Source: Isurus oxyrinchus
Lineage: Eukaryota
Direction: 5' to 3'
DNA length: 64,000 bases
NCBI GenBank assembly: GCA_026770705.1
Contig: JANJGN010000052.1
Coordinates: 2,666,001 to 2,730,000, forward strand
The position numbers and the translations under genes are program-made. Under the pieces are notes generated by a model. It was given only the letters and a program-made list of their open reading frames with translations. It was not told the origin of the DNA and made no database searches. This document shows positions 32,431-60,679 of this stretch, one piece after another. The first letter of the stretch is position 1; every line of letters begins with the position of its first letter.

Positions 32431-32575
32431 CCAGGACCTGTCCGAATGCTCGCCTGGGGAGGAACTGCCCACACGCTCTGCTTGGGCTGAATGACCTCTT
32501 CCTGTGCTGCTCCCTCTGTGTGTTTAATTAGAAAGGGTGGATGTGTCACTGTGAGACAAAATGAGGAAGTGGGTA
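32431..32575 (-). promoter_or_regulatory. Putative first non-coding exon/promoter of Siglec A
   Basis: Minus-strand donor GTAAGT after 32431; second UTR donor near 32053; AAAATGAGGAAGTG ETS/PU.1-like site ending at 32571; repeated upstream of each leader. Confidence 0.5.
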
Positions 32576-36000: not shown

Positions 36001-36121
36001 GAATGCCTCTCTGATACGAAGGTGATTCTAACCAGGACACTGACCAGTTTCATTACAACTTAACCCAACATCACACGTTATTTGTACGCACTGACTGACC
36101 AGATTGTTGCTGTACAAAGCT

Positions 36122-36261
36122 TCAAACAGGCTGTCGACTTCCTTTCACTGTTTGTCTCTCCCAGACACAGACTCCAGCGATAGTGATAACCACAGCCACA
36201 AGGAATATCACAGCTCGTATTCCCAGGATCAGGATCACGTGCAGAATCTCTCCTCCACTGT
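36122..36261 (-). CDS. Siglec B TM/cytoplasmic exon with intramembrane Arg
   Basis: Near-identical to 19462-19601; tail ...VKGSRQPV*. Confidence 0.8.
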
Positions 36262-37382
36262 CTAGAGAACACACAGAAAGAAATCATCACTGACTCTCCA
36301 CTTTCAATCTCTCACTCTGGCTGAACAATTAAGCTTCATATCACTGCAACATTTGCTTTAATCTTGACCCATCCACTGGGATTCAATGTGGAATGAATGT
36401 TTTCATTGTAAACACTCTAAGAGTGGACAATCGGAACTTTCCCCTTAGCGTGGAACATTGGTGAGAATGGATCATTGTGCTGTTGGACTCTCTGTCCAAT
36501 GTTTCTCTCCATCGCTGTGTACAGGATTGTGCTGTAGAAAATTCTGGAAACGTTTAGTGCAGAGTGGAAATCCATCTCGGACGCGTGTGTGATTCGGGCA
36601 GGATCGAGATGGACTCCCCCACGGACTTACACCCCCCGCTTAATAAACAGTTCCAATCTTTACCCAGAGAGAGGGGAGAATATGGAACTCGCTCCCACAG
36701 GGAATGGTTGAGGTGAGTAGTAGCGAATTAGGAAGTGAAATTGCTTGAAAAGCTGGGAGATGCAAGGGTTAAGTGCAACCGTGCCACCACTGGTGGGAGA
36801 GTGTAACTACAGCATAACGTTTACATAGGCAATCCCCATTATGAACAAGGACATTGGACATCATGTGAAATATGTGCACTGGAAAGCTGAGAACTTGATG
36901 TAAGCTTTTCACCAACAGGAATTCCCTTCCTAAACCTCTCCACCTCTCACTTACTCTCAGATACTCAAACAAAATTTCACACAAAATCACATAAGGACGA
37001 GTTGGGACAGGTGACTGGTCAAAGGGTTAGGTTTCAGGAAGCTTCTTAAAGGAGGATAGAGAGTTGGAGAGGCAGAGAGTATCTGTGAGTATCTCTGTGC
37101 ATCTGAGTGTCTGTAATAGACTTTGCAATTTCCATATTCTTCCATAAATATGAAAGGGAACACTAAACCCAGAATCCAGGTCAACTCTCCGGTGCAGCAC
37201 TGAAGGAGGTCAGGTAATCCACAGGGGAGTATGTGATAGTGTATTTGTTTGTGAGTGTGTCTTTGTGTGTGCTCATAGATGTGGGATTGTGGGTCTGCAG
37301 GTGTCTATTTAGGTCTGTATATTTATGTGTGTTTGTGTAGTGTTTGAATCTGTGAGAGATGTTGAAGTCTGTGTACACTCAC

Positions 37383-37535
37383 GTTCCACAGTGATGGTTA
37401 TGAATCCCTCCACTGCTCCATGTTCATTCTCTGCCACACACTGATAGTCTCCAGTGTCCCTGGATGTAACGTGAGGAATCACCAACCACAGTTCATTGTT
37501 GGAACTTGTTCTGTTCATTGGGACATTCAGATGTC
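37383..37535 (-). pseudogene. 5'-truncated third Ig exon (copy B)
   Basis: MNRTSSNNELWLVIPHVTSRDTGDYQCVAENEHGAVEGFITITVE, donor GTGAGT; N-terminal half missing. Confidence 0.78.
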
Positions 37536-37857
37536 AGGACCGGACTCAACAAGACAGATCGCAGGTTTACCAACAGAAAATGAAGAACAATTTATAATTA
37601 AAGGGAAGAGAGTGCTGATTGGGTGGCAAGTGGTCTCTGATTGGAGGAGAGTTGCCATTGAAAATAATGTGTGCGAGCTGTAAAGTTTAGACAGCTTGTC
37701 TCTTCATTCAGCAATAATCAAATAAAGATCAGTTAACTTCTATGGACTGTGAAGCATTTTGAGAGGCCTGAGAATATGGATACTGAGAACGGGCTGCACT
37801 GTCAGAGGGTCAGCGCTGAGGGAGTGCTGATGTAGAATGAAGGGTGTCCGTACTTAC

Positions 37858-38147
37858 CTTGCACAGTTAGTACGAGGGTCCGCTCCGATGAAACAGATGG
37901 ATATCTCACTCTGCAGCTGAGAGTGTGTCCGTGGTGTTTGAGTGATGGGATCAGGGTCAGAACAGAAGTATAGGTCAGAGTGACACCATGCTGGTGTTTG
38001 AGACTGATCCAGGTACGTCAGTGGGAGTGTCCCAGGTTAAGACAGGTGCTGCTGTTCCATTGCACGTTGTGTTGAAGGTGCAGCTTACATCCACACGCTT
38101 TCCTGCAATAATTTCAGCAGGGAATATCGTGGGTTTATCTGTGAAAT
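37858..38147 (-). pseudogene. Frameshifted Siglec C2 exon
   Basis: 290 bp versus 297; 7-bp deletion (agttaca) at ~37993. Confidence 0.88.
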
Positions 38148-39458
38148 CTAACAGACAGAGAATGGATCCTTTTAGAGAAATATAACGTGAAGCATCAGTT
38201 CAAATAGAAAGCACAGTCCCACAAGAGAAAGCAATTTTACAAGGATGATATCAGAACTGAGAGGTTACAATGATCATTAAAGAATTGTCTATTTTTACAC
38301 TTGTTGAATCTCTGTCACTCAGATTAATACACTCTCACTCAGTGACCCTTGATTTGACCAGACTGGGTGAGGGTGGAGGAACAGCTCACAGCTCGGGGAG
38401 AACAGACTCAGCATTTGGAAAAGGATATAGAGACACTGGAGAGGGTGGTAAAAAGCTTCACAAGGATGATCTCAGCAATGTGAGGCTTTACCTATCAGGA
38501 GAGGATGTACAGGCTGGGTCTCTGTTCTCTTGAACAGAGAAGGTTGAGGGGTGACCTCATTTGATCTTTGAAGTAATGAAAGGTTTTGATCGAGTAGACA
38601 TGGAGAGAGTGTTTCCACTCCTCACTTTGAACAAAACCAGAGGCTGACAATATAAGATTGTCACTAATAAATCCAATGGGGAATTCAGGAGAAACTTCTT
38701 TAACCAGAGAGTGGGGAGAATGTGTACTTCAAGAATCACTTCATTGGCTGTGAATTGATTTAGGATGGTCCTGAGGTGGTGAAAGGCGCTATAGAAATGC
38801 GAGACTTGGTTTTGTATTTTGAAAGCAGGTTTCCAAGGATGAGATGGGAACTGAGAAGTAACAACAATCAGCAGCAACTTTCCTATTTTCAAACTTGGTG
38901 GGGAATGTGTCACTGAGCTGAATACACTTTCACTCCCAGACCCTTGAATTGCCAACACTGGGGTGTGGGTGATGGAGCAGCCCACAGCTCATGGAACCCT
39001 GGCTCATCATTCTCTCAGAGATCTGGGTCACTGATCCCATTGCTCTCTGTGGGAGCTTCCTGTGTACAAACTCACTGCCACGTTAGTGACTATACTTCAA
39101 GAATTTCTTCATTGTCTGTGAAGTGATTTGAAGTTTGTTGAGGTGGTGAAAGGCGCTATAGGAATGCACGTCCTTCTTTTGTCAAATTGTTAGACTTTTA
39201 AACAGGATTAGAGAGACTGATGGGAGTGGATAGCCTGATAGCATTGATGGACACAGTCAATACATTTAATCATTGACATTAAAGTGATTATTAGAGGTTG
39301 CTTTAAGACTGAACTGGAAGCAATCACCAGGTTATTGAGAATCAGACAGTGTGTAAAAATAAACTGTGTTTTGTGTTAATATGTAAACGTCACAGTTTGT
39401 GTTATTTCCCATTGAGTGTTGAATGTGAATTGTTGAGTAATTATAACACAGCACTTAC

Positions 39459-39823
39459 CAGAAACATGAAGCTGGGTTACAGGATAGTAGTTGTATCTTT
39501 TCCTGCCGTCAAATTCTATCCTGAAAAAATAAGGTCCTGCATCTTCCCGTCTGATGTTGTTTATAATCAGGGAACAGTCGCCATCTTTCAGGTCTCCAGA
39601 CAGCCGGGTCCGATGGTGGAACCGTGGTAACTCGTGACTGTGATCCTTGGAGTGAAAGGCAATGGGAGAACCCAATTTGTGTGTTTCTTTATTACACCAG
39701 ATTCCATCTCGTGGTTTGTTTTCCAACTCTACTGGATAACTGTAACGAAATGGAATCTGTACACAGATTCCTGCGCTGTCACCTCTCGTGGAGTGTCACC
39801 TTTCCACTCTTGTGACAGTCCAG
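39459..39823 (-). pseudogene. Frameshifted Siglec V exon
   Basis: 365 bp versus 369; net 4-bp loss at ~39766 giving an early TAG; B-strand Cys codon changed to TTT. Confidence 0.88.
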
Positions 39824-40003
39824 CTGGGGAGAGAAATCTCAATATTTATCCCTGGATCCTCATTGTTTAATGAATCTCTTTGGATCTTCTTTGTCTAAGG
39901 AATCTTTTTGGATCCTCATTGTCTAAGGGATTATTTCTGATCCAAACCCCATATTGTTGTATTGTTGATTCCGATGCAGCATTGTAGACTGACTTGTCCC
40001 CCA

Positions 40004-42900
40004 AAAAACTGTGTATCTCAGCCTTGAATATAATTAATGACCCAGCCTCTGCAGCTCTCTGCAGTAAAGAATTCCACACATTCACTACCCTCTGAGAGAA
40101 GAAACTCCTCATCTCTGTCTTAAATGGGTGACCCCTTACTCTGAGATTATGCCCTCTGGTCCTAGACTCTCCCACAAGGGGAAACAACCTCTCAGCATCT
40201 ACCCTGTCAAGCACCCTAAGAATCTTATATGTTTCAATAAGGTCAGCTCTCATTCTCCTAAACTCCAATGAGTACAGGCCCATCCTACTCAACCTCTCCT
40301 CATATGAAAATCCCTCCATTACTGGGATCAACCTAGTGAACCTTCTCTGGACTGCCTCCAATGCCAGTACATCTTTCCTTAGATAAGGGAACCAAAACTG
40401 CTCACAGTATTCTAGGTGTGGTCTAACTAGTGCCTTGTATAGTTTTAGCAAGACTTCCCTATTTTTATACTCCATTCCCTTTGAAATAAAGGCCAACATT
40501 CCACCTGCCTTCCCTATTAACTGTTGAACCTGTATGTTATCTTTCTGATGACCCCCAAATTCCTCTATGCTTCAGCTTTCTAATGTCTTTCTCCATTGAA
40601 ATAATATTCAGCTCCTCTATACATCCTGCCACAGTGCAGCAGCTCACATTTTCCCACATTATATTCCATCTGCCAAGTTGATGCCCACTCACTGAACCTG
40701 TCTATGTCCCTCTGTAGACTCTTCGTGTCACCCTCACCACTTGCCTTCCCATCTATTTTTGTGTCATCCGCAAACTTGGCGAAAGTACATTAATTTCCCT
40801 CATCCAAGTCATTAATATATATTGTAAATAATTGTGGCCCCAGCACTGATCCCTGTGGCACTCCACAGGTTGACATCCTGAAAATGCCCCCCTTATCCCA
40901 ACTCTCTGACTTCTATTAGTTAGCCGATCCTCTATCCATGCTAATATACTGCCCCCAACACCATGGGCTCTTATCTTATTAAGTAGCCTTATATGTGGTA
41001 CTTTACTGAACGACTTTTGCAAATCCAAATATATTACATCTACTGGTTCCCCTTTATCTATCCTGTTTGTTACCTCCTCAAATAATTCTAATAAATTTGT
41101 CATGCATGATTTCCCCTTCATGAAGCCTATGTTTGTTTAAATTATGCATTTCTAAATAGTCTGCTGTTACATCCTTTATAATGGACTCTAACATGTTCCC
41201 AATGACAGATGTTAAGCTCACTGGCCTATAGTTTCCTGTTTGTTGTCTCCCTCCCTTTTTGAATATGGGTGTTACTTTGGCAGATTTCCAATCCTCTGGG
41301 AGTTTCCCAGAATCTAAGGATTCTTGGAAGATTAAAACCAGTACATCCACTATCTCTGCATCTACTTCCTTTAATATCCTAAGATGCAACCTATCAGGTC
41401 CAGGGGACCTATCAGACTTGAGACCCATTAGTTTCGCTAGCGTTATTCTCTAGTGATAGTTACTGTATTTATTTCCTCTCCCCACCCCCCTTTTGCCCCT
41501 TGATTATTTAGTATTTTTGGAATGCTATTAGTGTGTTCTACCGTGAAGACTGATGCAAAGTATTTATTCAACTCCTCTGTCATTTTCTGGTTCCTCATTA
41601 TTATTTCCCCAGCCTAGTTCTCTAAGGGGCCCATGTTCACTTTGGTCTCTCTCTTCCTTTTTATATATTTAAAGGAGCTTTTATTGTCCTTTTTTATATC
41701 AATTGCTAGTTTACCTAGTTTTCTCCCTCTTTATTTATTTTTTGGTCATCTTCTGTTGGTTTTTAAAACTCTCTCAATCCTCTGGCTTACCACTAATCTT
41801 TGTCGTGCTGCATGTTTTTTCCTTCAATTTGACACACACCTTAACTTCTTTGGTTAACCCAGGTTGGTTTATTCTCTTCCTACAATCCTTCTTTCTCACT
41901 GGGATATATCGTTGTTGTGAGTCATGAGCTATTTTCTTAAACATCTGCTATTGTTCATCCACCATCTTTTCTGCTAAACCCCTTTCCCAGTCCACTCCAG
42001 ACAACCCTGTCCTTATTCCTTTGTAATTACACTTATTTAAGTCCAGCACAGTTGTTTCCGACCCAGGTTTCTCAGTCTCAAACGGAATGCTAAATTCTAC
42101 CAGGTTATGGTCACTGTTTTCCAGGGGATCATTTATTCTGAGATCATGTATGAAACCTGCCTCATTACACATTACCAGATCCAAAATAGCCTGATCCCTG
42201 GTTAGATCCACGACATATTATTCCAGGAAACTGTCTTGAATACACTCAATGAATTCTTGCTCATGGCTACCTCTGCCAATTGGGTTTTCCCAATCTACAT
42301 GAAGATTAATGTACTGCCTTTTTTACATGCCCTCATTATCTCATGATTTATTCTCTGTCCTACAGCCGAGCTACAGTCATGGGGCTGATAGACCACTCCC
42401 ACCAGTTCCTTCCTCCACTTGTTATTCATTACCTCGAGCCATATGGATTCTATACCCTCCGATCCAAGATCATTTCTTGCTTTCGTACTTATTCCATCTC
42501 CTATTAACAAAGCTACCCCACCACCTTTCCTTCCTGCCTGTCTTTTTGAAAAGTCACATACCCCTGAATATTTATTTCAAAGCTTTGATCTCCTTGTAAC
42601 CATGTCTCCATAATGGCTATAAGATCAAACCCATTAACCTCTATTTGTGCCTTTAATTCATTTATGTTGTTCCAAATACTATGTGCATTTAAGTCAAGAG
42701 CCATTAATTTTGTCTTTTTATCATTTTCCTCCCTCTGACACTATTTGCTGATGTATTTTAATGTTTGGACACTGTGTACCCACCTGTCACACACTGGGTA
42801 TCATCACCAAAACAGCTATCCTGCAATGCTGACAAATCCTTTTGCTTTGTAAGCCTACATATACCCTCTCCAGAACACTCTCCCCATCTATTTAGTTTAA
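40004..42900 (-). mobile_element. CR1 LINE ORF2 (APE + RT), decayed, 3'-truncated
   Basis: LNAHSIWN...IAIMETWL endonuclease; SPGPD...NYRPVSLTS; VDVIYLD...; YKALVRPHLEYC. Confidence 0.92.
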
Positions 42901-44195
42901 AGGCAATACTGAGGGAGAGCAGCACTGTCAAAGGGTCATTACTGAGGGAGTGTTGCACAGTTGGAAGCTCTGGAACAAGGGACTGCAGCATTATCTGAGG
43001 GTCAGTCGGGAGGGAGGTATTCAATGTTGGATTGTAAGATCTGAGGGAGCGCTGCAGAGTTGGAGCTTCAGTAGTGAAGGAGTGCTGCACTGTCAGAGGG
43101 TCAGTACTGAGGGAGTGCTGCACTGTCAGAGGGTCAGTACTGAGGGAGTGCTGCACTGTTGGAGGGTCAGTACTGTGGGAGTGCTGCACTGATGGAGGAT
43201 CAGTACAGAGAGATTTCTAAACTGTTGGAGGATCAGTACTGAGAGAGTGCTGCACTGTCAGAGGGTCAGTACTGAGGGAGTGCTGCACTGTCAGAGGGTC
43301 AGTACTGAGGGAGTGCTGCACTGTCAGAGGGTCAGTACTGAAGGAGTGCTGCACTGTCGGAGGGTCAGTACTGAGGGAGTGCTGCACTGTCGGAGGGACA
43401 TTATTGAGGGAGTGCTGCGATGTCGGAGGATCAGTACTGAGGGAGTGCTGCACGATCAGGGGGTCAGTACTGAGGGATTGCTACACTGTTGGAGGGTCTG
43501 TACTGATTGAGTGCTGCACTGTTGGAGGGTCAGTACTAAGGGAGTGCTGCACTGTCAGAGGGTCAGTACTGAAGGAGTGCTGCACTGTCGGAGAGTCAGT
43601 ACTGAGGAGGTGCTGCACTGTCGGAGGATCAGAACTGAGGGGGTGCTGCACTGTCAGAGGGTCAGTACTGAGGGAGTGCTGCACTGTCAAAGGGTCAGTA
43701 CTGAGGGAGTGCTGCCCTGTCAGAGGGTCAGTATTGAGGGAGTGCTGCACTGTCAGAGGGCCAGTACTGAGGGACAGCTGCACTGTCGGAGGGTCAGTAC
43801 TAAGGGAATGCTGTACAGTCAGAGGGTCAGTACTGAGGGAATGCTGTACAGTCAGAAGGTCAGTACTGAGGGAGTGCTGCACTGTCGGAGGGTCAGTACT
43901 GAGGGAGTGCTGCACTGTCAGGGGGTGAGTACTGAGGGAGTGCTGCACTGTCAGAGGGTCAGTACTGAGGGTGTACTGCACTGTCAGAGGGTCAGTACTG
44001 AGTGAGTTCTGCACTGTCAGGGGGTCAGTACTGAGTGAGTGCTGCACTGTCAGAGGTTCAGTACTGAGGGTTTGCTGCACTGTCAGGGGGTCAGTACAGA
44101 GGGAGTGCTGCACTGTCAGAGGGTCAGTACTGAGGGAGTGCTGCACTGTCAGAGGGTCAGTACTGAGGGAGTGCTGCACTGTCAGGGGGTGAGTA
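42900..44195. repeat. 30-bp minisatellite
   Basis: gtcagagggtcagtactgagggagtgctgcact units. Confidence 0.95.
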
Positions 44196-44407
44196 CATTG
44201 CGATTCCTGCTCTGCTCTATCGGTCTCTTGGCTGGAAATAAAAGCCGCTGTGTTACTGTTCAGAAACTGTTATTAATTGTGTTCCGGTCACTATTTTCCC
44301 TAAAAAACAGATTCTCTGATTCTCATCAGAATACCTTTCTATGGGATCCTGCTGTGCATTATCTACACTGTTCTAGCTAATATAGAATGAAAGGTGTCCA
44401 TACTTAC

Positions 44408-47400
44408 ATTGCCCAGTTAGTACGAGGGTCCGCTCCGATGAAACAGATGGATATCTCACTCTGCAGCTGAGATTGTGTCCGTGGTGTTTGAGTGATGGGA
44501 TCAGGGTCAGAACAGAAGTATAGGTCAGAGTGACACCATGCTGAGTTACAGTGTTTGAGACTGATCCAGGTACGTCAGTGGGAGTGTCCCAGGTTAAGAC
44601 AGGTGCTGCTGTTCCATTGCACGTTGTGTTGAAGGTGCAGCTTACATCCACACGCTTTCCTGCAATAATTTCAGCAGGGAATATCGTGGGTTTATCTGTG
44701 AAATCTAACAGACAGAGAATGGATCCTTTTAGAGAAATATAACGTGAAGCATCAGTTCAAATAGAAACCACAGTCCCACAAGAGAAAGCACTTTTACAAG
44801 GATGATATCAGAACTGAGAGGTTACAATGATCAGGAAAGATTTTCTTGCTCTTTGGCAGTAGTGTTTCTGTCTCTCAGCTTAATACACGTTCACTCCGAG
44901 ACATGTGAATTGAGAACACTGGATGAGAGAAGAGGCTCAGACCAGAGATTGGAGTTAAAAGCAGACTACTGCGGATGCTGGAAATCTGAAACCAAAATAA
45001 AAATTGCTGGAAAGACTCAGCAGGTCTGACAGTATCAGTGGAGAGGAAGACAGGGTTAACGTTTCGAGTCCGTATGACTCTTCATCAGACCAGAGGTTTG
45101 AGTTCACTGGCTTCTCATTTCCTCAGCGATCTGGGTGATTTATTACATTGTGTTTGTTGGATCTTGCTGTGCACAAACTGCCTGCTGTGTTTAACATCTG
45201 TGACCACAATTCAGGAATAATTTCATTGGCTGTGAAGGGATTTGGATCCTCCTGAGGTGGTAAATTGCGCTGCAGAAATGCACATCTTTCTTTTATCGAT
45301 ACGTCAGACTTTTAAACAGGACAGGAGAGATTGATGGGTGTGGATAACCTGATAATACAGTTCATGCTTTTCATCATTGATATTAAAGTGTGTATTAGAG
45401 GTTGCTTTAGGACTGAACTGGAAGCTATCACCAGGTTATTGAGAATCAGACAGTGTGTTATAATAAGCTGTGTTTTGTGTTAATATGTAAATGTCACAGT
45501 TTGTGTTATTTCCCATTGAGTGTTGAATGTGAATTGTTGAGGAATTATAACACAGCACGTACCAGAAACGTGAAGCTGGGTTACAGGGTAATAGTTATGG
45601 CTCGGACCATTGTCAAATTCTATTCTGAAAAAATAAGGTCCTGCATCTTCCCGTCTGATGTTGTTTATAATCAGGGAACAGTCGCCATCTTTCAGGTCTC
45701 CAGACAGCCGGGTCCGATGGCGGAACCGTGGTAACTCGTGACTGTGATCCTTGGAGTGAAAGGCTATGGGAGCCCAGGGGATCTGTTCCTCATTATTAAA
45801 CCAGACTCCACCTCGCGGTTGGCTTTCCAAATGTGATGGATAACTGTAATGACATGGAATCTGTACACACGAACCTTCCTGCGCTGTCACCTCTCGGGGA
45901 GTGTCACCTTTCCACTCTTGTGACAGTCCAACTGGGGAGAGAAATATCAATATTTAACTCTGGAAGGTTTGTAGATCCACTAGACTCGATATCCACTCCC
46001 TCCATCACTGGGGCACAGTGGCTGCAGTGTGGACCATCTACAGGACACACAAGGAACTCCTCAAGGTTTCACAATGGATGGAAGAGAATCCTGGACACAG
46101 GAGTGGACAAGTTCATTCTACATTGGCTCATGGTCCTCAGGACCCTGTTTAGTGAAGCCAGTGAGACAGTGTCACTGTGCCTTGTATTATAATGCTCCTG
46201 TATAGCCCCTTGGATTGTTTTTTTTTACAGTTAAGGCGCTATGTAAATATAATCTATTGCTCTCTGCTCATCTGGACCATTTGGATTCTTCATTTCAAGC
46301 GGCCTGGTGACAGCTTCATGTTCAGTCCAAATGCAGCCTCTAATTATCACTTTAATGTCAATGATTAAATGTGACCCAACACTGTGTCTACAAGACACAC
46401 CAACTGAGATCCATTCAGTGCTGATTTACAAGACAGGACAATGGATTAGGAGCCCTCAGAACTCCCCCCATTATCACCGTCATGAATCACTAATTAGCCT
46501 AACATTCCTGTCTGCTCTTCAACACAGCTGATTGGTTAATCTGGTTCAATATGATTGGTGCACTTTAGACCTTCATTGTCTGAGGAATCTCTTTGGATCC
46601 TCATTGTTTCAGGAATCTCTTTGGATCCTCATTGTCTAAGGAATCTCTATGGATCCTCATTGTCTAATGGATTATTTCTGATCCAAACCCCATATTGTTG
46701 TATTGTTGATTCCGATGCAGCATTGTAGACTGACTTGTCCCCAAGCTCAGCACTGACCCTACTCCAGCAGACACTGTGAAACACACTAACAAAGCGCCTC
46801 TCGCCTGAGCTCTGCATGTGTCAAGAGCAAAGACAAATATACAAACTGAATATTGACCCCTTTACACACAGACAGCTTTACCTTCCTTCTCTCTTTCAGT
46901 TATCTTGCTCCCTTATTGAAGTATCTAGCAAGGTGAGAATGGACAGGAAGTGTGACACTGAACAGCCTGTCTATTCTAGGAGCTGCTGTGTTGTCTTCAT
47001 GGGAAATTCTGACAAAATCAGCAAAAGATACAAAATTAGGATATTGCTATCAGGCACCTAACATAAGGAGAGACTTCATCCTCCAGCTTTTATCCCTGAT
47101 TTTCTACTCAACCTTTTACCACCCTTCCCCCCATCCACACTGACTTCCATAGGCTCCCAGTCAAGCAGTGCCTCCATTTTAAGATTCTCATGCTCAATTC
47201 CCAATCCCCCCAACCCCCTCTCCAGTCCCTACCTCTGTAACCTCATCCAGCCCCTTCACCCCTCTGAGATCTCTGCTCTCCTCCAATTCTGCTGTCAGAC
47301 AGGGAGTCAGTGTATATCAGTGAGCACAGGGGTGATGGGTCAATGGGACTCGGTGTGAGTTTGTACACTGGCTCACTGCTGAATCTGTTCCCAATCACAG

Positions 47401-47507
47401 CTCAATAAGAATGATCTTTTACAAAGACTATTCACCATAAATCTGTCCGAGCTGACGATGATATTACCTTGGAGAAGTGACAGGAGGAAGTAAGATTTCC
47501 CGATCAT
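44408..47507 (-). CDS. Siglec cassette B: L(47468-47507)-V(45563-45931)-C2(44408-44704); nearest TM exon at 36122-36261
   Basis: Open exons of 40, 369 and 297 bp, phase 1; V donor is GTACGT; essential Arg YFFR retained. Confidence 0.8.
44957..45088 (-). mobile_element. Penelope-type end with minimal hammerhead-like core (copy at ~55887-56020)
   Basis: Minus strand CTGATGA-A-GAGTC-atacg-GACTC-GAAAC-GTTA; flanked by imperfect cagaccagag...gagtt duplication; empty site in copy A at ~21718. Confidence 0.6.
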
Positions 47508-48319
47508 TGTCCACTCCCAGATAATTCCTCAGCTTCTAACTCTGATTTTCTGAAAGAGAAAGGAGTTAATGAGACCTCACCTCTTGTCCGACAGCTCTCG
47601 AGAGATTAGAACTGCTTTTAGACAATGTCTTCACGGATCTAATTTGATTCTCTGTGGGATGATAGGTGCTCTGCAGAGAGTTACAAGGCTTTAAGAAAGG
47701 AAAACATTGAAGGACTTGCATTTCTATAGCACCTTTCAACACCTCAGGATATCCCCAAGCTCATGTCCCTTGAGCTAGAAAGATGTTCTGTACAACAGAC
47801 TTGAGTCTCACACCCAGATCTCAATAATCAGTAGAAATCTTTCAAAGGCATCAATCATTGGAATCTGTCTTTATAAAGTCACAACATCAACAAAGGACGG
47901 TGTTGGTCGTGGAAGTGAATTCCAATCGTTCCGTTACTTACCCAGGACCTGTCCGACTGCTCGCCTGGGGAGGAACTGCCCACACGCTCTGCTTGGGCTG
48001 AATGACCTCTTTCTGTGCTGCTCCCTCTGTGTGTTTAATTAGAAATGGTTGATGTGTCACTGTGAGTCAAAATGTGGAAGTGGTCACTTTATGAGAATGC
48101 AACTGATGTTTAGAGTTTTTTGAAGCTGTTAACCCTTTGCGTTCTGGACTTGTGATGATATTTCTGCTCAAAAGTGGAAAGTCATTGACCAGGAATTCTC
48201 CTGTGGGTCATTGGGTTTCAAACCCTCTCTCGCTGTCTGAGTGAGAAGGTCGTCTGTTCGAGATTCATTTGGCAAAATTCAGACTGACAAACCAGACCGG
48301 CAATCGGTGTCAGGACTGA

Positions 48320-48640
48320 GAGTCCTGCACTGTCAGAGGGTCATTCCTGAGGGCATGCTGCACTGTTGGAGGGTCAGTACTGAAGCAGTGCTGCACTGTC
48401 AGAGGATCAGTATTGTGGGAGTGCTGCACTGCCAGAGGGTCAGTACTGAAGCAGTGCTGCACTGTCAGAGGCTCAGTATTGTGGGAGTGCTGCACTGCCA
48501 GAGCTTCAGTACTGAAGCAGTGCTGCACTGTCAGAAGCTCAGTATTGTGGGAGTGCTGCACTGTCAGAGGGTCAGTACTGAGGGAGTGCTGCACTGTTGG
48601 AGAATCAGTACTGAGGGAGTGCTGCACTGTCAGAGGATCA
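48320..48640. repeat. 30-bp minisatellite (copy at 59260-59675)
   Basis: Tandem 30-bp units. Confidence 0.9.
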
Positions 48641-49639
48641 AATTATTTCTGATCCAAACCCCATATTGTTGTATTGTTGATTCCGATGCAACATTGTAGA
48701 CTGACTTGTCCCCAAGCTCAGCACTGACCCTACTCCAGCAGAGACTGTGAAACACACTAACAAAGCGCCTCTCGCCTGAGCTCTGCATGTGTCGGAGGTG
48801 CCACTGTGGTGGGTTCATGACCTTCACCATCCGCTTCACTGAGTTTCGGTTAAAACTGAACTGGAACACACACTAAACGCTGATGGAAACCATCACTTCC
48901 TCTTCTCCAACATGAAGAGTTTCAGCAGAAGAGGTAAACTGTTGCTGAAAAGGAACTTTCTTCATCATATCACAGAATCACACAGAATAGCAGGAGGCCA
49001 TTCATGCCATCTTGGCTGTGCTAGCTCTTTAAAAGAAGCACACAATTGGTTTCAATCCACCTCTCTTCCCCCATCGTCCTTCAAATTCTTCCTGTTCCAG
49101 ATTGAATCCAAATTCATGAATATAAATCCCCTCAGATGGGAGTAACCATCACTGAGCAGGCAGGTTAGGTTTTATTGTACACAGCGAGTTGCTGTGATCT
49201 GGAAGGTGCTGCCTGAAAGGGCGGTGGAAGCAGATTCAATAGGATCTTTCAAAATACTTGCAGAGTGTGAGAGAATGGGAGATTGGGACCAATTGGATAT
49301 CTGTCCCAGGAGACCAGGACAGGGACAATGGGCTGAGTGGCCTCTTTCTGTGCTGTTTGATTCTGTGGTTTTCTAATATTTATCTGCGCTGCAGATCAGA
49401 GACAAACAGGAAACAATAAACTTCTGACCTTTCCACACAGGCTGAATTGTCATCTCTTTATTTTCAGCCAGTTTGCTTAATTCTTGTGGTTTGGTGGTGA
49501 AACTGTGCAGCAAGTGTGAGTGTTGGGTTGTAGATCTGTCTATTCTGACTGCTGCTGTGCTCATGGTGACTTCTCAATTACATGAGAGTCTCTGAGATCC
49601 TCCACACCCAAGGATTAAGGAGAGACTTCCAAAGATTCA

Positions 49640-51222
49640 GGACGCAGTACTGAAGAGGTGCTGCACTGTCAGAGGGTCAGTACTGAGGGAGTGCTGCACT
49701 GTCAGAGGGTCAGTACTGAGGGAGTGCTGCACTGTCAGAGGGTCAGTACTGAGGGAGTGCTGCACTGTCAGAGGGTCAGTACTGAGGGAGTGCTGCACTG
49801 TCAGAGGGTCAGTACTGAGGGAGTGCTGCACTGTCAGAGGGTCAGTACTGAGGGAGTGCTGCACTGTCAGAGGGTCAGTACTGAGGGAGTGCTGCACTGT
49901 CAGAGGGTCAGTACTGAGGGAGTGCTGCACTGTCAGAGGGTCAGTACTGAGGGAGTGCTGCACTGTTGGAGGGTCAGTACTGAGGGAGTGCTGCACTGTC
50001 AGAGGGTCAGTACTGAGGGAGTGCTGCACTCTCAGAGGGTCAGTACTGAGGGAGTACTGCACTGTCAGAGGGTCAGTACTGAGAGAGTGCTGCACTGTCA
50101 TAGGGTCAGTACTGAGGGAGTGCTGCACTGTCAGAGGGTCAGTACTGAGGGAGTGCTGCACTGTCGGAGGGTCAGTACTGAGAGAGTGCTGCCTGTCAGA
50201 GGGTCAGTACTGAGGGAGTGCTGCACTGTCAGAGGGTCAGTACTGAGGGAGTGCTGCACTGTCAGAGGGTCAGTACTGAGGGAGTACTGCACTGTCAGAG
50301 AGTCAGTACTGAAGCAATGCTGCACTGTCAGAGGGTCAGTACTGAAGAGGGACCCTGAGAATGTGAAAGGTGTGATATCAATGTAGGTTCCATCACCACA
50401 AAGCACTTAATTCAGGCAGACACTTCAGTTCAGTACTGAGGGAGTGCTGTATTGTTGGAGGGTCAGTACTGATGGAGTGCTGCACTGTTGGAGGGTCAGT
50501 ACTGAGGTAGTGCTGCACTGTGGGAGGGTCAGTACTGAGGGAGAGCTGCCCTCTTGGCGCGTGAGTACTGATGACCTGCTGCACTGTTGGAGGGCAGGTA
50601 CTGTGAAAGCTGCACTGCCGCATAGTCAGTACTGAGCAAGTACTTCACTGTCAGAGAATCAGTACTGAGGGAGTGCTGAACTGTTGGAGGATCAGTACTG
50701 AGGGAGTGCTGCACTGTTGGAGGATCAGGACTGAGGGAGTGGTGCACTGTCGGAGGGTCAGTACTGATGGACTGCTGCACTGTTGGAAGATCAGTACTGA
50801 GGGAGTGCTGCACTGTCGGAGGGTCAGTACTGATGGAGTGGTGCACTGTCAGAGGGTCAGTACTGAGGGAGTGCTGCACTGTTGGAGGGTCAGTACTGAG
50901 GGAGTGCTGCACTGTTGGAGGGTCAGTACTAGGGGAGTGTTGCACTGTTGGAGGGCCAGTACTGGAAGAGTGCTGCACTCTCGGAGGGTCAGTACTTAGG
51001 GAATGCTGCACTGTCGGAGGGTCAGTACTGAGGGAGTGCTGCACTGTCGGAGGGTCAGTAATTAGGGAGTTCTGCACTGTTGGAGGGTCAGTACTGAGGG
51101 AGTGCTGCACTGTTAGAGGGTCAATACTTAGGGAATGCTGCACTGCCAGAGGGTCAGTACTGAGGGAGTGCTGCACTGTTGGAGGGTCAGTAATTAGGGA
51201 GATCTGCACTGTCGGAGGGTGA
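49640..51222. repeat. 30-bp minisatellite arrays at the segmental duplication junction
   Basis: Highly homogeneous units at 49660-50345; more diverged units at 50430-51222. Confidence 0.95.
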
Positions 51223-54200
51223 TAAGACCATAAGACCACCGGACGTCAGAGCAGAAGGAGGCCATTCGGCCAATCAACTCTGCTCCGCCATTCAATGACA
51301 CCATGGCTGATCTGACAATCCTCAACTCCACTTTCCTGCCTTTTCCCCATAGCCTTTGATTCCCTGACTGATTAAAAAACTGTGTATCTCAGCCTTGAAT
51401 ATAATTAATGACCCAGCCTCTGCAGCTCTCTGTAGTAAATAATTCCACACATTCACTACCCTCTGAGGGAAGAAACTCCTCATCTCTGTCTTAAATGGGT
51501 GACCCCTTACTCTGAGATTATGCCCTCTGGTCCTAGACTCTCCCACAAGGGGAAACAACCTCTCAGCATCTACCCTGTCAAGCACCCTAAGAATCTTATA
51601 TGTTTCAATAAGGTCAGCTCTCATTCTCCTAAACTCCAATGAGTACAGGCCCATCCTACTCAACATCTCCTCATATGAAAATCCCTCCATTACTGGGATC
51701 AACCTAGTGAACCTTCTCTGGACTGCCTCCAATGCCAGTACATCTTTCCTTAGATAAGGGAACCAAAACTGCTCACAGTATTCTAGGTGTGGTCTAACTA
51801 GTGCCTTGTATAGTTTTAGCAAGACTTCCCTATTTTTATACTCCATTCCCTTTGAAATAAAGGCCAACATTCCACCTGTCTTCCCTAATAACTGTTGAAC
51901 TTGTATGTTATCTTTCTGATGACCCCCAAATTCCAATATGCTTCAGCTTTCCAATGTCTTTCTCCATTGAAATAATATTCAGCTCCTCTATACATCCTGC
52001 CACAGTGCAGCAGCTCACATTTTCCCACAATCTATTTCATCTGCCAAGTTGATGCCCACTCACTGAACCTGTCTATGTCCCTCTGTAGACTCTTCGTGTC
52101 ACCCTCACCACTTGCCTTCCCATCTATTTTTGTGTCATCCACAAACTTGGCGATAGTACATTAATTTCCCTCATCCAAGTCATTAATATATATTGTAAAT
52201 AATTGTGGCCCCAGCACTGATCCCTGTGGCAATCCACAGGTTGCCATCCTGAAAATGCCCCCCTTATCCCAACTCTCTGACTTCTATTAGTTAGCCGATC
52301 CTCTATCCATGCTAATATACTGCCCGCATCACCATGGGCTCTTATCTTATTAAGTAGCCTTATATGTGGTACTTTACTGAATGCCTTTTGGAAATCCAAA
52401 TATATTACATCTACTGGTTCCCCTTTATCTATCCTGTTTGTTACCTCCTCAAAGAATTCTAATAAATTTGTCATGCATGATTTCCCCTTCATGAAGCCTG
52501 TGTTTGTTTAAATTATGCATTTCTAAATAGTCTGCTATTACATCCTTTATAATGGACTCTAACATGTTCCCAATGACAGATGTTAAGCTAACTGGCCTAT
52601 AGTTACCTGTTTGTTGTCTCCCTCCCTTTTTGAATATGGGTGTTACTTTGGCAGATTTCCAATCCTCTGGGAGTTTCCCAGAATCTAAGGATTCTTGGAA
52701 GATTAAAACCAGTACATCCACTATCTCTGCATCTACTTCCTTTAATATCCTAAGATGCAACCTATCAGGCCCAGGGGACCTATCAGCCTTGAGACCCATT
52801 AGTTTCGCTAGCGTTATTCTCTAGTGATAGTTATTGTATTTATTTCCTCTCCCCACCCCCCTTTTGCCCCTTGATTATTTAGTATTTTTGGAATGCTATT
52901 AGTGTGTTCTACCGTGAAGACTGATGCAAAGTATTTATTCAACTCCTCTGTCATTTTCTGGTTCCCCATTATTATTTCCCCAGCCTAGTTCTCTAAGGGG
53001 CCTATGAACACTTTGGTCTCTCTCTTCCTTTTTATATATTTAAAGAAGCTTTTATTGTCCTTTTTTATATCAATTACTAGTTTACCTAGTTATCTCCCTC
53101 TTTATTTATTTTTTGGTCATCTTCTGTTGGTTTTTAAAACTCTCTCAATCCTCTGGCTTACCACTAATCTTTGTCGTGCTGCATGTTTTTTCTTTCAATT
53201 TGACACACACCTTAACTTCTTTGGGTAACCCAGGTTGGTTTATTCTCTTCCTACAATCCTTCTTCCTCACTGGGATATATCTTTGTTGTGAGTCATGAGC
53301 TATTTTCTTAAACATCTGCTATTGTTCATCCACCATCTTTTCTGCTAAACCCCTTTCCCAGTCCACTCCAGACAACCCTGTCCTTATTCCTTTGTAATTA
53401 CACTTATTTAAGTCCAGCACAGTTGTTTCCGACCCACGTTTCTCAGTCTCAGAGGGAATGCTAAATTCTACCAGGTTATGGTCACTGTTTTCCAGGGGAT
53501 CATTTATTCTGAGATCATGTATGAAACCTGCCTCATTACACATTACCAGATCCAAAATAGCCTGATCCCTGGTTAGATCCACGACATATTATTCCAGGAA
53601 ACTGTCTTGAATACACTCTATGAATTCTTGCTCATGGCTACCTCTGCCAATTGGGTTTTCCCAATCTACATGAAGATTAATGTACTGCCTTTTTTACATG
53701 CCCTCATTATCTCATGATTTATTCTCTGTCCTACAGTCATGGGGCTGATAGACCACTCCCACCAGTTCCTTGTTCGCCTTGTTATTCATTACCTCGAGCC
53801 ATATGGATTCTATACCCTCCGATCCAAGATCATTTCTTGCTTTTGTACTTATTCCATCTCCTATTAACAAAGCTACCCCACCACCTTTCCTTCCTGCCTG
53901 TCTTTTTGAAAAGTCACATACCCCTGAATATTTATTTCAAAGCTTTGATCTCCTTGTAACCATGTCTCCATAATGGCTATAAGATCAAACCCATTAACCT
54001 CTATTTGTGCCTTTAATTCATTTATGTTGTTCCAAATACTATGTGCATTTAAGTCAAGAGCCATTAATTTTGTATTTTTATCATTTTCCTCCCTCTGACA
54101 CTATTTGCTGATGTATTTTAATGTTTGGACACTGTGTACCCACCTGTCACACACTAGGTATCATCACCAAAACAGCTATCCTGCAATGCTGACAAATCCT

Positions 54201-54260
54201 TTTGCTTTGTAAGCCTACATATACCCTCTCCAGAACACTCTCCCCATCTATTTAGTTTAA
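51223..54260 (-). mobile_element. CR1 LINE ORF2 with 3' tail (duplicate of 40004-42900)
   Basis: Same APE/RT motifs and shared frameshifts; tail repeat (taagacca)2 near 51223-51238. Confidence 0.92.
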
Positions 54261-55125
54261 AGGCAATACTGAGGGAGAGCAGCACTGTCAAAGGGTCATT
54301 ACTGAGGGAGTGTTGCACAGTTGGAAGCTCTGGAACAAGGGACTGCAGCATTATCTGAGGGTCAGTCGGGAGGGAGGTATTCAATGTTGGATTGTAAGTT
54401 CTGAGGGAGCGCTGCAGAGTTGGAGGTTCAGTAGTGAAGGAGTGCTGCACTGTCAGAGGGTCAGTACTGAGGGAGTGCTGCACTGTCAGAGGATCAGTAC
54501 TGAGGGAGTGCTGCACTGTTGGAGGGTCAGTACTGTGGGAGTGCTGCACTGATGGAGGATCAGTACGGAGAGATTTCTAAACTGTTGGAAGATCAGTACT
54601 GAGGGAGTGCTGCACTGTCAGAGGGTCAGTAGTGAGGGAGTGCTGCACTGTCAGAGGCTCAGTACTGAGACAGTGTTGCACTATCAGAGGGACAGGACTG
54701 AGGGAGTGCTGCACTGTCAGAGGGACAGGACTGAGGGAGTGCTGCACTGTTAGAGGGTCAGTACTGAGGGAGTGCTGCACTGTCAGAGGGTCAGTACTGA
54801 GGGAGTGCTGCACTGTCAGAGGGTCAGTACTGAGGGAGTGCTGCCCTGTCAGAGGGTGAGTACTGAGGGAGTGCTGCACTGTCAGAGGGTAAGTACTGAG
54901 GGAGTGCTGCCCTGCCAGAGGGTCAGTACTGAGTGAGTGCTGCACTGTCGGAGGGTGAGTACTGAGGGAGTGCTGCACTGTCAGAGGGTCAGTACTGAGT
55001 GAGTGCTGCCCTGTCAGAGGGTCAGTACAGAGGGTGTGCCGCACTGTCAGAGGGTCAGTACTGAGGGAGTGCTGCACTGTCAGAGGGTCAGTACTGAGTG
55101 AGTGCTGCACTGTCAGGGCGTGAGT
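54260..55125. repeat. 30-bp minisatellite
   Basis: Tandem units. Confidence 0.95.
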
Positions 55126-55338
55126 ACATTGCGATTCCTGCTCTGCTCTATCGGTCTCTTGGCTGGAAATAAAAGCCGCTGTGTTACTGTTCAGAAACTG
55201 TTATTAATTGTGTTCTGGTCACTATTTTCCCTGAAAAACAGATTCTCTGATTGTCACCAAAATACCTTTCTATGGAATCCTGCTGTGCATTATCTACACT
55301 GTTCTAGCTAATGTAGAATGAAGGGTGTCTATACTTAC

Positions 55339-58300
55339 ATTGCACAGTTAGTACAAGGGTCCGCTCCGATGAAACAGATGGATATCTCACTCTGCAGCTG
55401 AGAGTGTGTCCGTGGTGTTTGAGTGATGGGGTCAGGGTCAGAACAGAAGTATAGGTCAGAGTGACACCATGCTGAGTTACAGTGTTTGAGACTGATCCAG
55501 GTACGTCAGTGGGAGTGTCCCAGGTTAAGACAGGTGCTGCTGTTCCATTGCACGTTGTGTTGAAGGTGCAGCTTACATCCACACGCTTTCCTGCAATAAT
55601 TTCAGCAGGGAATATCGTGGGTTTATCTGTGAAATCTAACAGACAGAGAATGGATCCTTTTAGAGAAATATAACGTGAAGCATCAGTTCAAATAGAAATC
55701 ACAGTCCCACACGAGAAAGCATTTTTACAAGGATGATATCAGAACTGAGAGGTTACAATGATCAGGAAAGATTTTCTTGCTCTTTGGCAGTAGTGTTTCT
55801 GTCTCTCAGCTTAACACACGTTCACTCCGAGACATGTGAATTGAGAACACTGGATGAGAGAAGAGGCTCAGACCAGAGATTGGAGTTAAAAGCAGAATAC
55901 TGCGGATGCTGGAAATCTGAAACCAAAACAAAAATTGCTGGAAAGACTCAGCAGGTCTGACAGTATCAGTGGAGAGGAAGACCAGGGTTAACGTTTCGAG
56001 TCCGTATGACTCTTCATCAGACCAGAGGTTTGAGTTCACTGGCTTCTCATTTCCTCAGTGATCTGGGTGATTTATCACCTTGTGGTTTGTTGGATCTTGC
56101 TGTGCACAAACTGCCTGCTGTGTTTTACATCTGTGACTACAATTCAGGAATAATTTCATTGGCTGTGAAGGGATTTGGATCCTCCTGAGGTGGTAAATTG
56201 CGCTGCAGAAATGCACATCTTTCTTTTATCGATAAGTCAGACTTTTAAACAGGACAGGAGAGATTGATGGGAGTGGATAACCTGATAATACAGTTAATGC
56301 TTTTAATCATTGATATTAAAGTGAGTATTAGAGGTTGCTTTAGGACAGAACTGGAAGCTATCACCAGGTTATTGAGAATCAGACAGTGTGTTATAATAAG
56401 CTGTGTTTTGTGTTAATATGTAAACATCACAGTTTGTGTTATTTCCCATTGAGTGTTGAATGTGAATTGTTGAGTAATTATAATACAGCACTTACCAGAA
56501 ACCTGAAGCTGGGTTACAGGGTAATAGTTTTGGCTCGGACCATTGTCAAATTCTATCCTGAAAAAATAATGTCCCGCATCTTCCCGTCTGATGTTGTTTA
56601 TAATCAGGGAACAGTCGCCATCTTTCAGGTCTCCAGACAGCCAGGTCCGATGGTGGAACCGTGGTAACTCGTGACTGTGATCCTTGGAGTGAAAGGCTAT
56701 GGGAGCCCAGGGAATCTGTTTCTCATTATTAAACCAGACTCCACCTCGCGGTTGGTTTTCCAAATGTGATGGATAACTGTAATGACATGGAATCTGTACA
56801 CACGAACCTTCCTGCGCTGTCACCTCTCGTGGAGTGTCACCTTTCCACTCTTGTGACAGTCCAACTGGGGAGAGAAATATCAATATTTAACTCTGGATGG
56901 TTTGTGGATCCACTAGACCCGATATCCACTCCCTCCATCACTGGGGCACAGTGGCTGCAGTGTGGAACTTCTACAGGACACACAAGGAACTCCCCAAGGT
57001 TTCACAATGGATAGAAGAGAATCCTGGACACAGGAGTGGACAAGTTCATTCTACATTGGCTCATGGTCCTCAGGACCCTGTTTAGTGAAGCCAGTGAGAC
57101 AGTGTCACTGTGCCTTGTATTATAATGCTCCTGTGTAGCCCCTTGGATTGTTTTTTTTTACAGTTAAGGCACTATGTAAATATAATCTATTGCTCTATGC
57201 TCATCTGGACCATTTGAATTCTTAAGTTCAAGTGGCCTGGTGACAGCTTCATGTTCAGTCCAAATGCAGCCTCTAATTATCACTTTAATGTCAATGATTA
57301 AATGTGACCCAACACAGTGTCTACAAGACACACCAACTGAGATCCATTCAGTGCTGATTTACAAGACAGGACAATGGATTAGGAGCCCTCAGAACTCCCC
57401 CCATTATCACCGTCATGAATCACTAATTAGCCTAACATTCCTGTCTGCTCTTCAACACAGCTGATTGGCTAATCTGATTCAATCTGATTGGTGCACTTTG
57501 TATCTTCATTGTCTGAGGAATCTCTTTGGATCCTCATTGTCGAAGGAATCTCTTTGGATCCTCATTGTTTAAGGAATCTCGTTGGATCCTCATTGTCTAA
57601 GGGATTATTTCTGATCCAAACCCCATATTGTTGTATTGTTGATTCCGATGCAGCATTGTAGACTGACTTGTCCCCAAGCTCAGCACTGACCCTACTCCAG
57701 CAGACACTGTGAAACACACTAACAAAGCGCCTCTAGCCTGAGCTCTGCATGTGTCGAGAGAAAGACAAATATACAAACTGAATATTGACCCCTTTACACA
57801 CAGACAGCTTTACCTTCCCTCTCTCTTTCAGTTATCTTGCTCCCTTATTGAAGTATCTAGCAAGGTGAGAATGGACAGGAAGTGTGACACTGAACAACCT
57901 GTCTATTCTAGGAGCTGCTGTGTTGTCTTCATGGGAAATTCTGAATAAAATCAGCAAAAGACACATTTCAGGATATTGCTATCAGACACCTAACATAGGG
58001 AGAGACTTCATCCTCCAGTTTTTATCCCTGATTTTCTACTCAACCTTTTACCACCCTTCCCCCCATCCACACTGACTTACATAGGCTCCCAGTCAAGCAG
58101 TGCCTCCATTTTAAGATTCTCATGCTCAATTCCCAATCCCCCCAACCCCCTCTCCAGTCCCGACCTCTGTAACCTCATCCAGCCCCTTCATCCCTCTGAG
58201 ATCTCTGCTCTCCTCCAATTCTGCTGTCAGACAGGGAGTCAGTGTATATCAGTGAGCACAGGGGTGATGGGTGAATGGGACTTGGTGTGAGTTTGTACAC

Positions 58301-58439
58301 TGGCTCACTGCTGAATCGGTTCCCAATCACAGCTCAATGAGAATTATCTTTTACAAAGACTATTAACCATAAATCTGTCCAAGCTGACGATGATATTACC
58401 TTGGAGAAGTGACAGGAGGAAGTAAGATTTCCCGATCAT
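55339..58439 (-). CDS. Siglec cassette C: L(58400-58439)-V(56496-56864)-C2(55339-55635); no TM exon of its own
   Basis: Open exons with canonical splice sites; HYFFR essential Arg; near-identical to cassette B. Confidence 0.8.
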
Positions 58440-60679
58440 TGTCCACTCCCAGATATTTCCTCAGCTTCTAACTCTGAAGTTCTGAAAGAGAAAGGAGTTA
58501 ATGAGACCTCACCTCTTGTCCGACAGCTCTCGAGAGATCAGAACTGCTTTTAGACAATGTCTTCACAGACTAATTTGATTCTCTGTGGGATGATAGGTGC
58601 TCTGCAGAGATTTACAAGGCTTTAAGAAAGAAAAACATTGAAGGACTTGCATTTCTATAGCACCTTTCAACACCTCAGGATATCCCAAAGCTCATGTCCC
58701 TGCACTTCCCTCATCCCTTGAGCTTGAAAGATGTTCTGTACAACAGACTTGAGTCTCACACCCAGATCTCAATAATCAGTAGAAATCTTTCGAAAGCATC
58801 AATCATTGGAATCTGTCTTTATAAAGTCACAACATCAACATAGGACGGTGTTGGTGGTGGAAGTGAATTCCAATCGTTCCGTTACTTACCCAGGACCTGT
58901 CCGACTGCTCGCCTGGGGAGGAACTGCCCACACGCTCTGCTTGGGCTGAATGACCTCTTCCTGTGCTGCTCCTCTGTGTATTTAATTAGAAAGGGTTGAT
59001 GTGTCTCTGTGAGACAAAATGTGGAAGTGGTCACTTTGTGAGAATGCAGCTGATGTTTTGAGTTTTTGAAGCTGTTAACCCTTTGCGTTCTGGACTTGTG
59101 ATGATAATTCTGCTCAAAAGTGGAAAGTCATTGAATTTCTGCTGTGTGTCATTATGTTTCAAACCCTCTCTCTCTCTCTGAGTGAGAAGGTCGTCTGTTC
59201 GAGATTCATTTGGCAAAATTCAGACTGACAAACCAGACCGGCACTCGGTGTCAGGACTGAGAGTCCTGCACTGTCAGAGGGTCATTCCTGAGGGCGTGCT
59301 GCACTGTTGGAGGGTCAGTACTGAAGCAGTGCTGCACTGTCAGAGGCTCAGTATTGTGGGAGTGCTGCACGGCCAGAGGGTCAGTACTGAGGGAGTGCTG
59401 CACTGTCAGAGGTCAGTACTAAGGGAGTGCTGCACTGTTGGAGGGTCAGTACTGAAGCAGTGCTGCACTGTCAGAGGCTCAGTATTGCGGGAGTGCTGCA
59501 CTGCCAGAGGGTCAGTACTGAGGGAGTGCCGCACTGTTGGAGGATCAGTACTGAGGGAGTGCTGCACTGTTGGAGAATCAGTACTGAGTGCTGCACTGTC
59601 AGAGGGTCAGTACTGAGGGAGTGCTGCACTATTGGAGAATCAGTACTGAGGAAGTGCTGCACTGTCAGAGGATCAAATTATTTCTGATCCAAACCCCATA
59701 TTGTTGTATTGTTGATTCCGATGCAGCATTGTAGACTGACTTGTCCCCAAGCTCAGCACTGACCCTACCCCAGCTGACACTGTGAAACACACTAACCAGG
59801 CGCCTCTAGACTGAGCTCTGCATGTGTTGGAGGTGCCGCTGTGGTGGGTTCATGACCTTCACCATCCGCTTCACTGAGTTTCGGTTAAAACTGAACTGGA
59901 ACACATACTAAACGCTGATGGAAACCATCACTTCCTCTTCTCCAACATGAAGAGTTTCAGCAGAAGAGGTAAACTGTTGCTGAAAAGGAACTTTCTTCAT
60001 CATATCACAGAATCACACAGAATAGCAGGAGGCCATTCATGCCATCTTGGCTGTGCTAGCTCTTTAAAAGAAGCACACAATTGGTTTCAATCCACCTCTC
60101 TTCCCCCATCGTCCTTCAAATTCTTCCTATTCCAGATTGAATCCAAATTCATGAATATAAATCCCCTCAGATGGGAGTAACCATCACTGAGCAGGCAGGT
60201 TAGGTTTGATTGTACACAGCGAGTTGCTGTGATCTGGAAGGTGCTGCCTGAAAGGGCGGTGGAAGCAGATTCAATAGGATCTTTCAAAATACTTGCAGAG
60301 TGTGAGAGAATGGGAGATTGGGACCAATTGGATATCTGTCCCAGGAGACCAGGACAGGGACAATGGGCTGAGTGGCCTCTTTCTGTGCTGTTTGATTCTG
60401 TGGTTTTCTAATATTTATCTGCGCTGCAGATCAGAGACAAACAGGAAACAATAAACTTCTGACCTTTCCACACAGGCTGAATTGTCATCTCTTTATTTTC
60501 AGCCAGTTTGCTTAATTCTTGTGGTTTGGTGGTGAAACTGTGCAGCAAGTGTGAGTGTTGGGTTGTAGATCTGTCTATTCTGACTGCTGCTGTGCTCATG
60601 GTGACTTCTCAATTACATGAGAGTCTCTGAGATCCTCCACACCCAAGGATTAAGGAGAGACTTCCAACGATTCAGGACG

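Follow-up and report, generated by a model that had tools for sequence, protein, structure and literature searches.

Tandem Siglec-like heads before a single membrane exon in a large paired-receptor family of the shark Isurus oxyrinchus

How does a receptor family come to place two complete extracellular heads in front of one membrane anchor? The question is raised by a 64,000-nucleotide stretch of the Isurus oxyrinchus genome, the window (contig JANJGN010000052.1, here C52, positions 2666001-2730000, in an assembly of 4.98 Gb), in which two Siglec-like leader-V-C2 cassettes, C and B, lie in tandem ahead of a single exon coding for a transmembrane (TM) segment. A preliminary description of this sequence took the arrangement to suggest cassettes spliced to a common TM exon, concatenated receptors or secreted lectins, with simple duplication debris as a fall-back. 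The fall-back proves the better guide: with a probability of roughly 0.7, the anatomy reflects unequal crossing-over and one deletion in a very large family of paired Siglec-like genes, and hence ordinary gene turnover, and B together with the TM exon is one copy of a recurrent, six-copy fusion gene.

The cassettes and the exons around them

Judged by their sequence, the cassettes are Siglec-like, with a V-set domain followed by a C2-set domain, an F-strand arginine, and three cysteines in each domain. This identity, already proposed in the preliminary description, is borne out by matches in Pfam (V-set and Ig_CD22 for V, C2-set_2 for C2) and the PDB. The best PDB match of the V domain is Siglec-7 (E 7.7e-15), with the YFFR arginine aligned, which we take to be the essential F-strand arginine of Siglecs; the matches for V and C2 include Siglec-7, -8, -5, CD33, and MAG, with C2 matching CD33 and MAG after a nectin. 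B and C both have the arginine, as do 83 of 95 open V exons. Both cassettes have cysteines at positions 21, 26, and 84 of V and 145, 151, and 203 of C2, the pairing of which, including a disulfide between V and C2, is presumably that of Siglecs. Among annotated proteins, the nearest come from the white and basking sharks, at up to 95%.

Three classes of TM exon occur in the family: TMa, with an arginine in the TM segment and a short tail; TMi, followed by tail exons of the immunoreceptor tyrosine-based inhibitory motif (ITIM) type; and TM2, with a tyrosine-bearing tail of its own. D3 and D5 denote further domain exons, and U an exon that precedes the leader. In window coordinates (position 1 being the window start), the exon boundaries on the minus strand confirm two U-leader-V-C2 cassettes (C, then B), followed by a V and a C2 that are frameshifted and by a single TM exon (36261-36100) ahead of the next gene, which begins with U at 32532. 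All coding exons of C and B are open and flanked by AG/GT sites. The features, in reading order, are:

59672-60692, unstranded: repeat X, upstream copy, 1 kb, satellite-flanked; 98.6% identity to 48637-49644
58890-58973, minus: U exon of C, probable exon of the 5' untranslated region (UTR); copy of TM2-class cytoplasmic exon 1, with a 1-nt deletion in that frame
58400-58481, minus: leader exon of C, ATG at 58439
56496-56864, minus: V-set exon of C, open, F-strand arginine present
55339-55635, minus: C2-set exon of C, open, ending in T followed by the donor GTAAGT
55304-55338, minus: start of the intron after C2 of C; read-through gives CKYRHPSFYIS and a stop
49645-55146, unstranded: intron of C, with 33-bp satellite, a broken long interspersed nuclear element (LINE; ~54200-51250), and 33-bp satellite
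48637-49644, unstranded: repeat X between C and B; cassette B stands where a native gene has D3-TM2 after X
47942-48026, minus: U exon of B, 85 nt, acceptor intact; joined to C2 of C it gives an immediate TAG
47468-47549, minus: leader exon of B, ATG at 47507; joined to C2 of C it gives an immediate TAA
45563-45931, minus: V-set exon of B, open
44408-44704, minus: C2-set exon of B, open, ending in T followed by GTAAGT
39990-40020, minus: deletion junction between the LINE of B's intron and the leader-V intron of an Arg-TM gene; 6 genomic copies
39459-39823, minus: dead V exon, 365 nt, splice sites intact; 4-nt deletion, stop after 30 codons, a lesion common to 6/6 fusion copies
37858-38147, minus: dead C2 exon, 290 nt, splice sites intact; 7-nt deletion, open (297 nt) in the other 5 fusion copies
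about 37383-37535, minus: remnant (3' half) of a D3 immunoglobulin (Ig) exon, 5' half and acceptor lost
36100-36261, minus: TMa exon, TM with arginine, short tail; stop at 36124-36122, 22 nt before the last junction
35060-35381, minus: final, 3' UTR exon of the TMa gene, 3' boundary approximate; joint 35381 to 36100 in 2/4 runs presumed to be RNA

The broken LINE in the intron of C we assume, from its motifs, to be CR1-like. A repeat search over 48600-60700 returned mostly satellite. The truncated D3, a second TM exon of identical type at 19601, and the nature of the U exon had all been missed earlier.

In sequence, the U exon duplicates the first tail (cytoplasmic) exon of TM2 genes, splice acceptor included, and the idea of a dedicated UTR exon was revised on this ground. 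The earlier description gave each cassette its own promoter and UTR exons, and a U exon does stand upstream of each leader. U lies just upstream of 60 of 61 leaders, and coding length and frame are retained in 51 of 59 scored leader-linked copies. The motif ACTTCC, which we take to be ETS-like, precedes 70 of 74 leader-linked U exons and none of 12 tail copies; it is retained in both B and C (~45 nt upstream of U in the latter). Together, the motif and U before leaders fit a putative promoter. Further observations are that U copies in the window lie at 47942-48026, 58890-58973, 62708-62809, and 32431-32532, and that the basking-shark model P0039 reads from TM2 through U-type exons into a V.

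Repeat X and the origin of the array

The intron after C2 of B and C marks a subfamily, with 23 exact matches in the genome: 11 native D3-TM2 genes (seven mapped, the other four inferred from a TM2 match 6-9 kb downstream), six orphan heads, C included, and six fusions, B included. A native gene reads U-leader-V-C2-D3-TM2, and in one on contig C121 one copy of the 1-kb repeat X precedes U and another, 10 kb away, lies within the C2-D3 intron. X thus flanks the 5' half of the gene, and unequal crossing-over therefore likely made the tandem heads. A crossover between the two X positions would yield exactly the unit seen in the window, where X lies ahead of C and again between C and B; recombination at X would in this way place 5' halves of one subfamily, those of C and B, in tandem. 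On contig C838, four X copies surround three heads. Head arrays occur five times in the subfamily, with up to three heads before one tail, and their tails differ, being either TM2 or TMa.

Variants private to C are R74W, P98H, and H111Q in V, and those private to B are T200N and V220G in C2. In two trees, the nearest relative of C is an orphan head at C52:2.98 Mb (99-100% identity), and B falls among the other fusions (support 98/97 and 100/98). C is therefore not a local copy of B, and the placement of both fits a crossover between non-sister copies. An assembly artefact or haplotig duplication has to be weighed, since family members on many contigs share 97-99% identity and a copy lying 260 kb from C matches it at 99.3-99.7%. 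B and C, however, differ by ~3% in sequence, have satellites of unequal length (34 against 21 units), and fall in separate clades, and tandem heads of differing sequence recur on C71, on C838, and elsewhere on C52; we regard an artefact as highly improbable.

The second step would be a deletion fusing head B to an Arg-TM tail. At 40003 the LINE in B's intron breaks off into leader-V intron sequence from a TMa gene, and in all six genomic copies of this junction the same dead V follows, while the second C2 is open in five and broken only in the window. TMa is open in all six copies, one of them with arginine changed to glutamine. B would then represent a promoter-and-head swap onto an activating tail.

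Several observations speak against gene turnover as the whole account. Five of the six orphan heads keep an open V and C2, and the fusion persists in six copies with open TMa, which selection could explain. Changes in the orphans relative to the subfamily majority number 14 nonsynonymous to 11 synonymous, against a neutral expectation of ~2.8:1 (changes private to each class, 5 to 2 in orphans and 7 to 3 in natives, are too few to decide on selection), and retention of ACTTCC before both B and C means that both may be transcribed. A bolder reading, which we consider unlikely, is that amplification of promoter-leader-V-C2 heads through repeats serves this cluster as a working diversity device. 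Tandem heads would then splice past each other to one anchor or yield secreted V-C2 lectins, and a repertoire of some 500 Siglec-like genes would contain a variable-constant locus at an early, still evolving stage.

Splice joins and their products

Throughout the family, V, C2, D3, D5, and TM exons all begin in phase 1. The preliminary description was right that both C2 donors are phase 1 and that the joins to the TM exon are in frame (VQ-Y-SGGE and GQ-Y-SGGE), but because the phase is universal, in-frame joins carry no information. Either C2 joined to TMa would give a 281-residue V-C2-TM receptor. To reach it, B has to bypass both frameshifted exons, whose splice sites are intact, and C six intact-site exons over 19 kb. 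Shorter joins end early: C2 of C joined to U or leader of B terminates the protein precisely where the domain ends, and C2 of B joined to the dead V or the dead C2 meets a premature stop.

Under crossing-over and deletion, splicing to the next intact exon would be the default. Translation of C would then end with the opening codon of B's U or leader, and that of B within the dead V, in each case hundreds of bases before the last junction. Messages with such premature stops are degraded under the junction rule, and those of C and B would be expected to decay. C would thus probably be non-productive, and a V-C2-TM receptor would come from B only with both dead exons skipped.

Contigs from runs presumed to be RNA, and not known to derive from this animal, show how relatives are spliced; depths were not used for ranking. 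In one sample, V-C2 and C2-TMa joints with GT-AG ends appear in four of four runs, and a 3' UTR intron in two of four; a single contig covers both TMa and an open C2 that ends in G. Paralogs splice C2 to TMa past an acceptor-less D3 remnant in all four runs of this sample, and the skips seen in contigs bypass fragments without an acceptor. Loose ends include C2 joined to D3, C2 joined to TMa in a second study, and a T-ending C2 joined to D5 in three runs from three studies. None of the contigs with C2-to-TM splicing is assignable to B or C. No contig in four runs matches the B/C-type intron at 44200-44370, neither B's private base 44413 nor the window's 7-nt C2 deletion was seen in contigs, and no T-ending C2 joined to TMa occurs among the matches listed; because contigs lose rare variants, none of these is evidence of absence.

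Could the heads instead be secreted decoys, their messages ending within the C2 intron (the tail CKY...YIS) or at a splice-made stop? Leader, V, and C2 are open in both, the cysteine in the tail would be a seventh, unpaired one, and AATAAA/ATTAAA sites occur from 1.2-1.6 kb into the intron, inside the LINE. The join of C2 of C to B's U or leader, which ends the protein at the domain boundary, would serve the same purpose. Contigs running from C2 into introns of other paralogs were found in two runs (828 nt in one), although they may be pre-mRNA or DNA, and a few annotated relatives have likewise been given read-through ends by annotation pipelines. Human soluble Siglec-14 offers a precedent by intron retention (reviewed in PMC8787094), with a short intron-coded tail and a stop after an Ig exon; the shark cassettes share this pattern, which chance alone would give about 4 times in 10. 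That isoform was demonstrated for an intact gene, whereas the shark tail is read from genomic sequence and is not conserved.

The tails with a free cysteine are as the preliminary description gave them, yet they do not exceed chance: a stop within 11 codons has a probability of ~0.41, and the cysteine arises because the last exon base, T, precedes the donor GT. This T is found in 17 of 55 C2 exons (G in the other 38); of 19 subfamily copies, 14 have T, four G, and one C. Tails range from 3 to >50 residues, and D3 donors give the same cysteine in 30 of 86 cases. Conservation of the free cysteine was accordingly rejected, as both last base and tail length vary among C2 exons, and with both varying even among the 19 subfamily copies read, the secreted disulfide dimer is not upheld. 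The donor, moreover, is the full consensus GTAAGT, and the splice-made stops lie >900 nt ahead of the last junction. Secreted decoys seem to us unlikely.

A concatenated V-C2-V-C2-TM receptor, formed by joining C2 of C to V of B, would have an open frame of 503 residues, and the family does build multi-domain heads. Their real form, however, is V-V-...-C2, and the concatenated frame requires skipping of U and leader of B as well as both dead exons. Direct V-C2-V order was found in none of 99 annotated shark and ray relatives (three fused models have exons between), and V of B is of the first type, while real chains carry an internal V marked by a BC-loop cysteine (in 39 of 40 open non-first V exons but 1 of 51 first ones; the copies are related and the counts not independent). 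This proposal of the preliminary description is not supported, given the skipping of B's two exons and the missing layout, and we give it very little credence.

Family size and comparison with known systems

Do cassettes outnumber TM exons? Locally they do, as the preliminary description stated. Pattern counts over the whole genome (at most one mismatch; controls 0) gave 580 leaders, at least 786 V, 529 C2, and 64 D5 matches, with 563 TM matches (227 TMa, 225 TMi, and 111 TM2), all of which include pseudogenes and possibly both haplotypes. The genome is thus estimated to hold about 530-580 Siglec-like units with three TM classes, its members lying on C52, C71, C121, C150, C189, C323, and other contigs. 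A map of 1.46 Mb holds 61 leaders, 101 V, 56 C2, and 56 TM exons; it covers 864 kb surrounding the window and, picked to include close matches, 400 kb from other parts of C52 and 200 kb of C71. Family-wide, cassettes are not in excess of TM exons, because 45 of the 48 leader-V-C2 units in the map meet a TM exon before the next leader; a leader comes first in two and an opposite-strand gene in one. An open path to TM leads from 38 of the 61 leaders by a lenient test. Fragments of all kinds are frequent (U alone, U-leader, tails alone), with six leader-only fragments in the map.

These counts bear on the proposal that promoter choice selects a cassette and its C2 is spliced past downstream cassettes to a shared TM exon, as in clustered protocadherin alpha or UGT1. 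According to PMC6047886, the variable unit there is one exon, with one constant set per cluster; the window resembles this locally, in having several units with putative promoters upstream of one shared exon. Both joins are in frame, with the TMa stop 22 nt before the last junction, and the recurrent arrays of up to three heads per tail would suit such a scheme. The shark units differ in two features, however, being four exons long with acceptors in the way and nearly all having a TM exon of their own. Orphans make up just 2 of 48 units in the map, C would have to pass six spliceable exons, array tails vary between TM2 and TMa rather than forming a single constant set, and the shared phase is universal. 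We consider this scheme improbable.

The closer parallel is with paired receptors, a layout found here in near-identical heads on charged-TM short tails (TMa) and ITIM tails (TMi, with motifs including ILYANI and TEYAQI). Two reports describe primate Siglec-5/14 and -11/16 as pairs with near-identical V-C2 heads and ITIM or charged-TM tails, together with a SIGLEC14/5 fusion (PMC4042635, PMC13358205), and recombination between similar 5' regions fuses the promoter of one Siglec to the tail of another. Heads and tails in the window appear to have been swapped in a similar way. Unlike SIGLEC14/5, the shark fusion sets a TM2-class head on an Arg-TM tail with two dead exons between, and unlike the two primate pairs, the shark family has hundreds of copies and three tail classes, with the activating tail predicted. 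It also resembles, by similarity only, the CD33-related Siglec cluster (PMC6288428): V-set with F-strand arginine plus C2, clustered, and rapidly changing. Humans have 15 Siglecs according to another source (PMC8615218), compared with the shark's several hundred units, in which a gene may hold as many as 10 V or 9 D3 exons. Literature searches returned no relevant description of Siglec expansions in sharks or fish.

The cassette pair thus offers a clear case of head and tail swapping in a paired-receptor cluster, with crossover repeat, junction, and copy numbers all readable. More striking are the size and modularity of the family, some 500 near-identical units in which tails come in three classes, stalks vary in length, and heads may hold several V domains. 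Should the count hold once haplotypes are checked, it would bear on the origin in time of activating and inhibitory sialic-acid receptors and on what drives their expansion.

Several further observations concern individual genes. The gene following the cassettes (window 19440-32532) reads U-leader-V-V-C2-(dead D3)-TMa and looks intact, its first V having a long, aromatic, basic C-C' loop. Multi-V genes have up to 10 V exons ahead of one C2 (window 22213-26645; C52:2280275-2299939). The essential arginine is lost in 9 of 51 first V exons (threonine 6, lysine 2, serine 1) and in none of 37 parsed internal ones, over the 1.46-Mb map and targeted stretches, while flanking markers of V exons (exon start, C-C' loop) swap between first and internal positions. 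The stalk comprises 0 to 9 near-identical D3 exons, varying among paralogs (C52:2464671-2473362 and others). ITIM-class genes often have two to three tandem pairs of tail exons with differing tyrosine motifs, possibly alternative tails (C52:2546021-2554549 and others), and other fusion layouts include V-C2-D3-V-V-TMi and V-C2-D3-V-V-C2-TMa (C52:2735555-2762461 and 623654-647614). Finally, C34:15134643-15272599, with three TM2 matches and a leader, and C25:36073489, with a lone V, may mark a chromosomal anchor or older members of the family.

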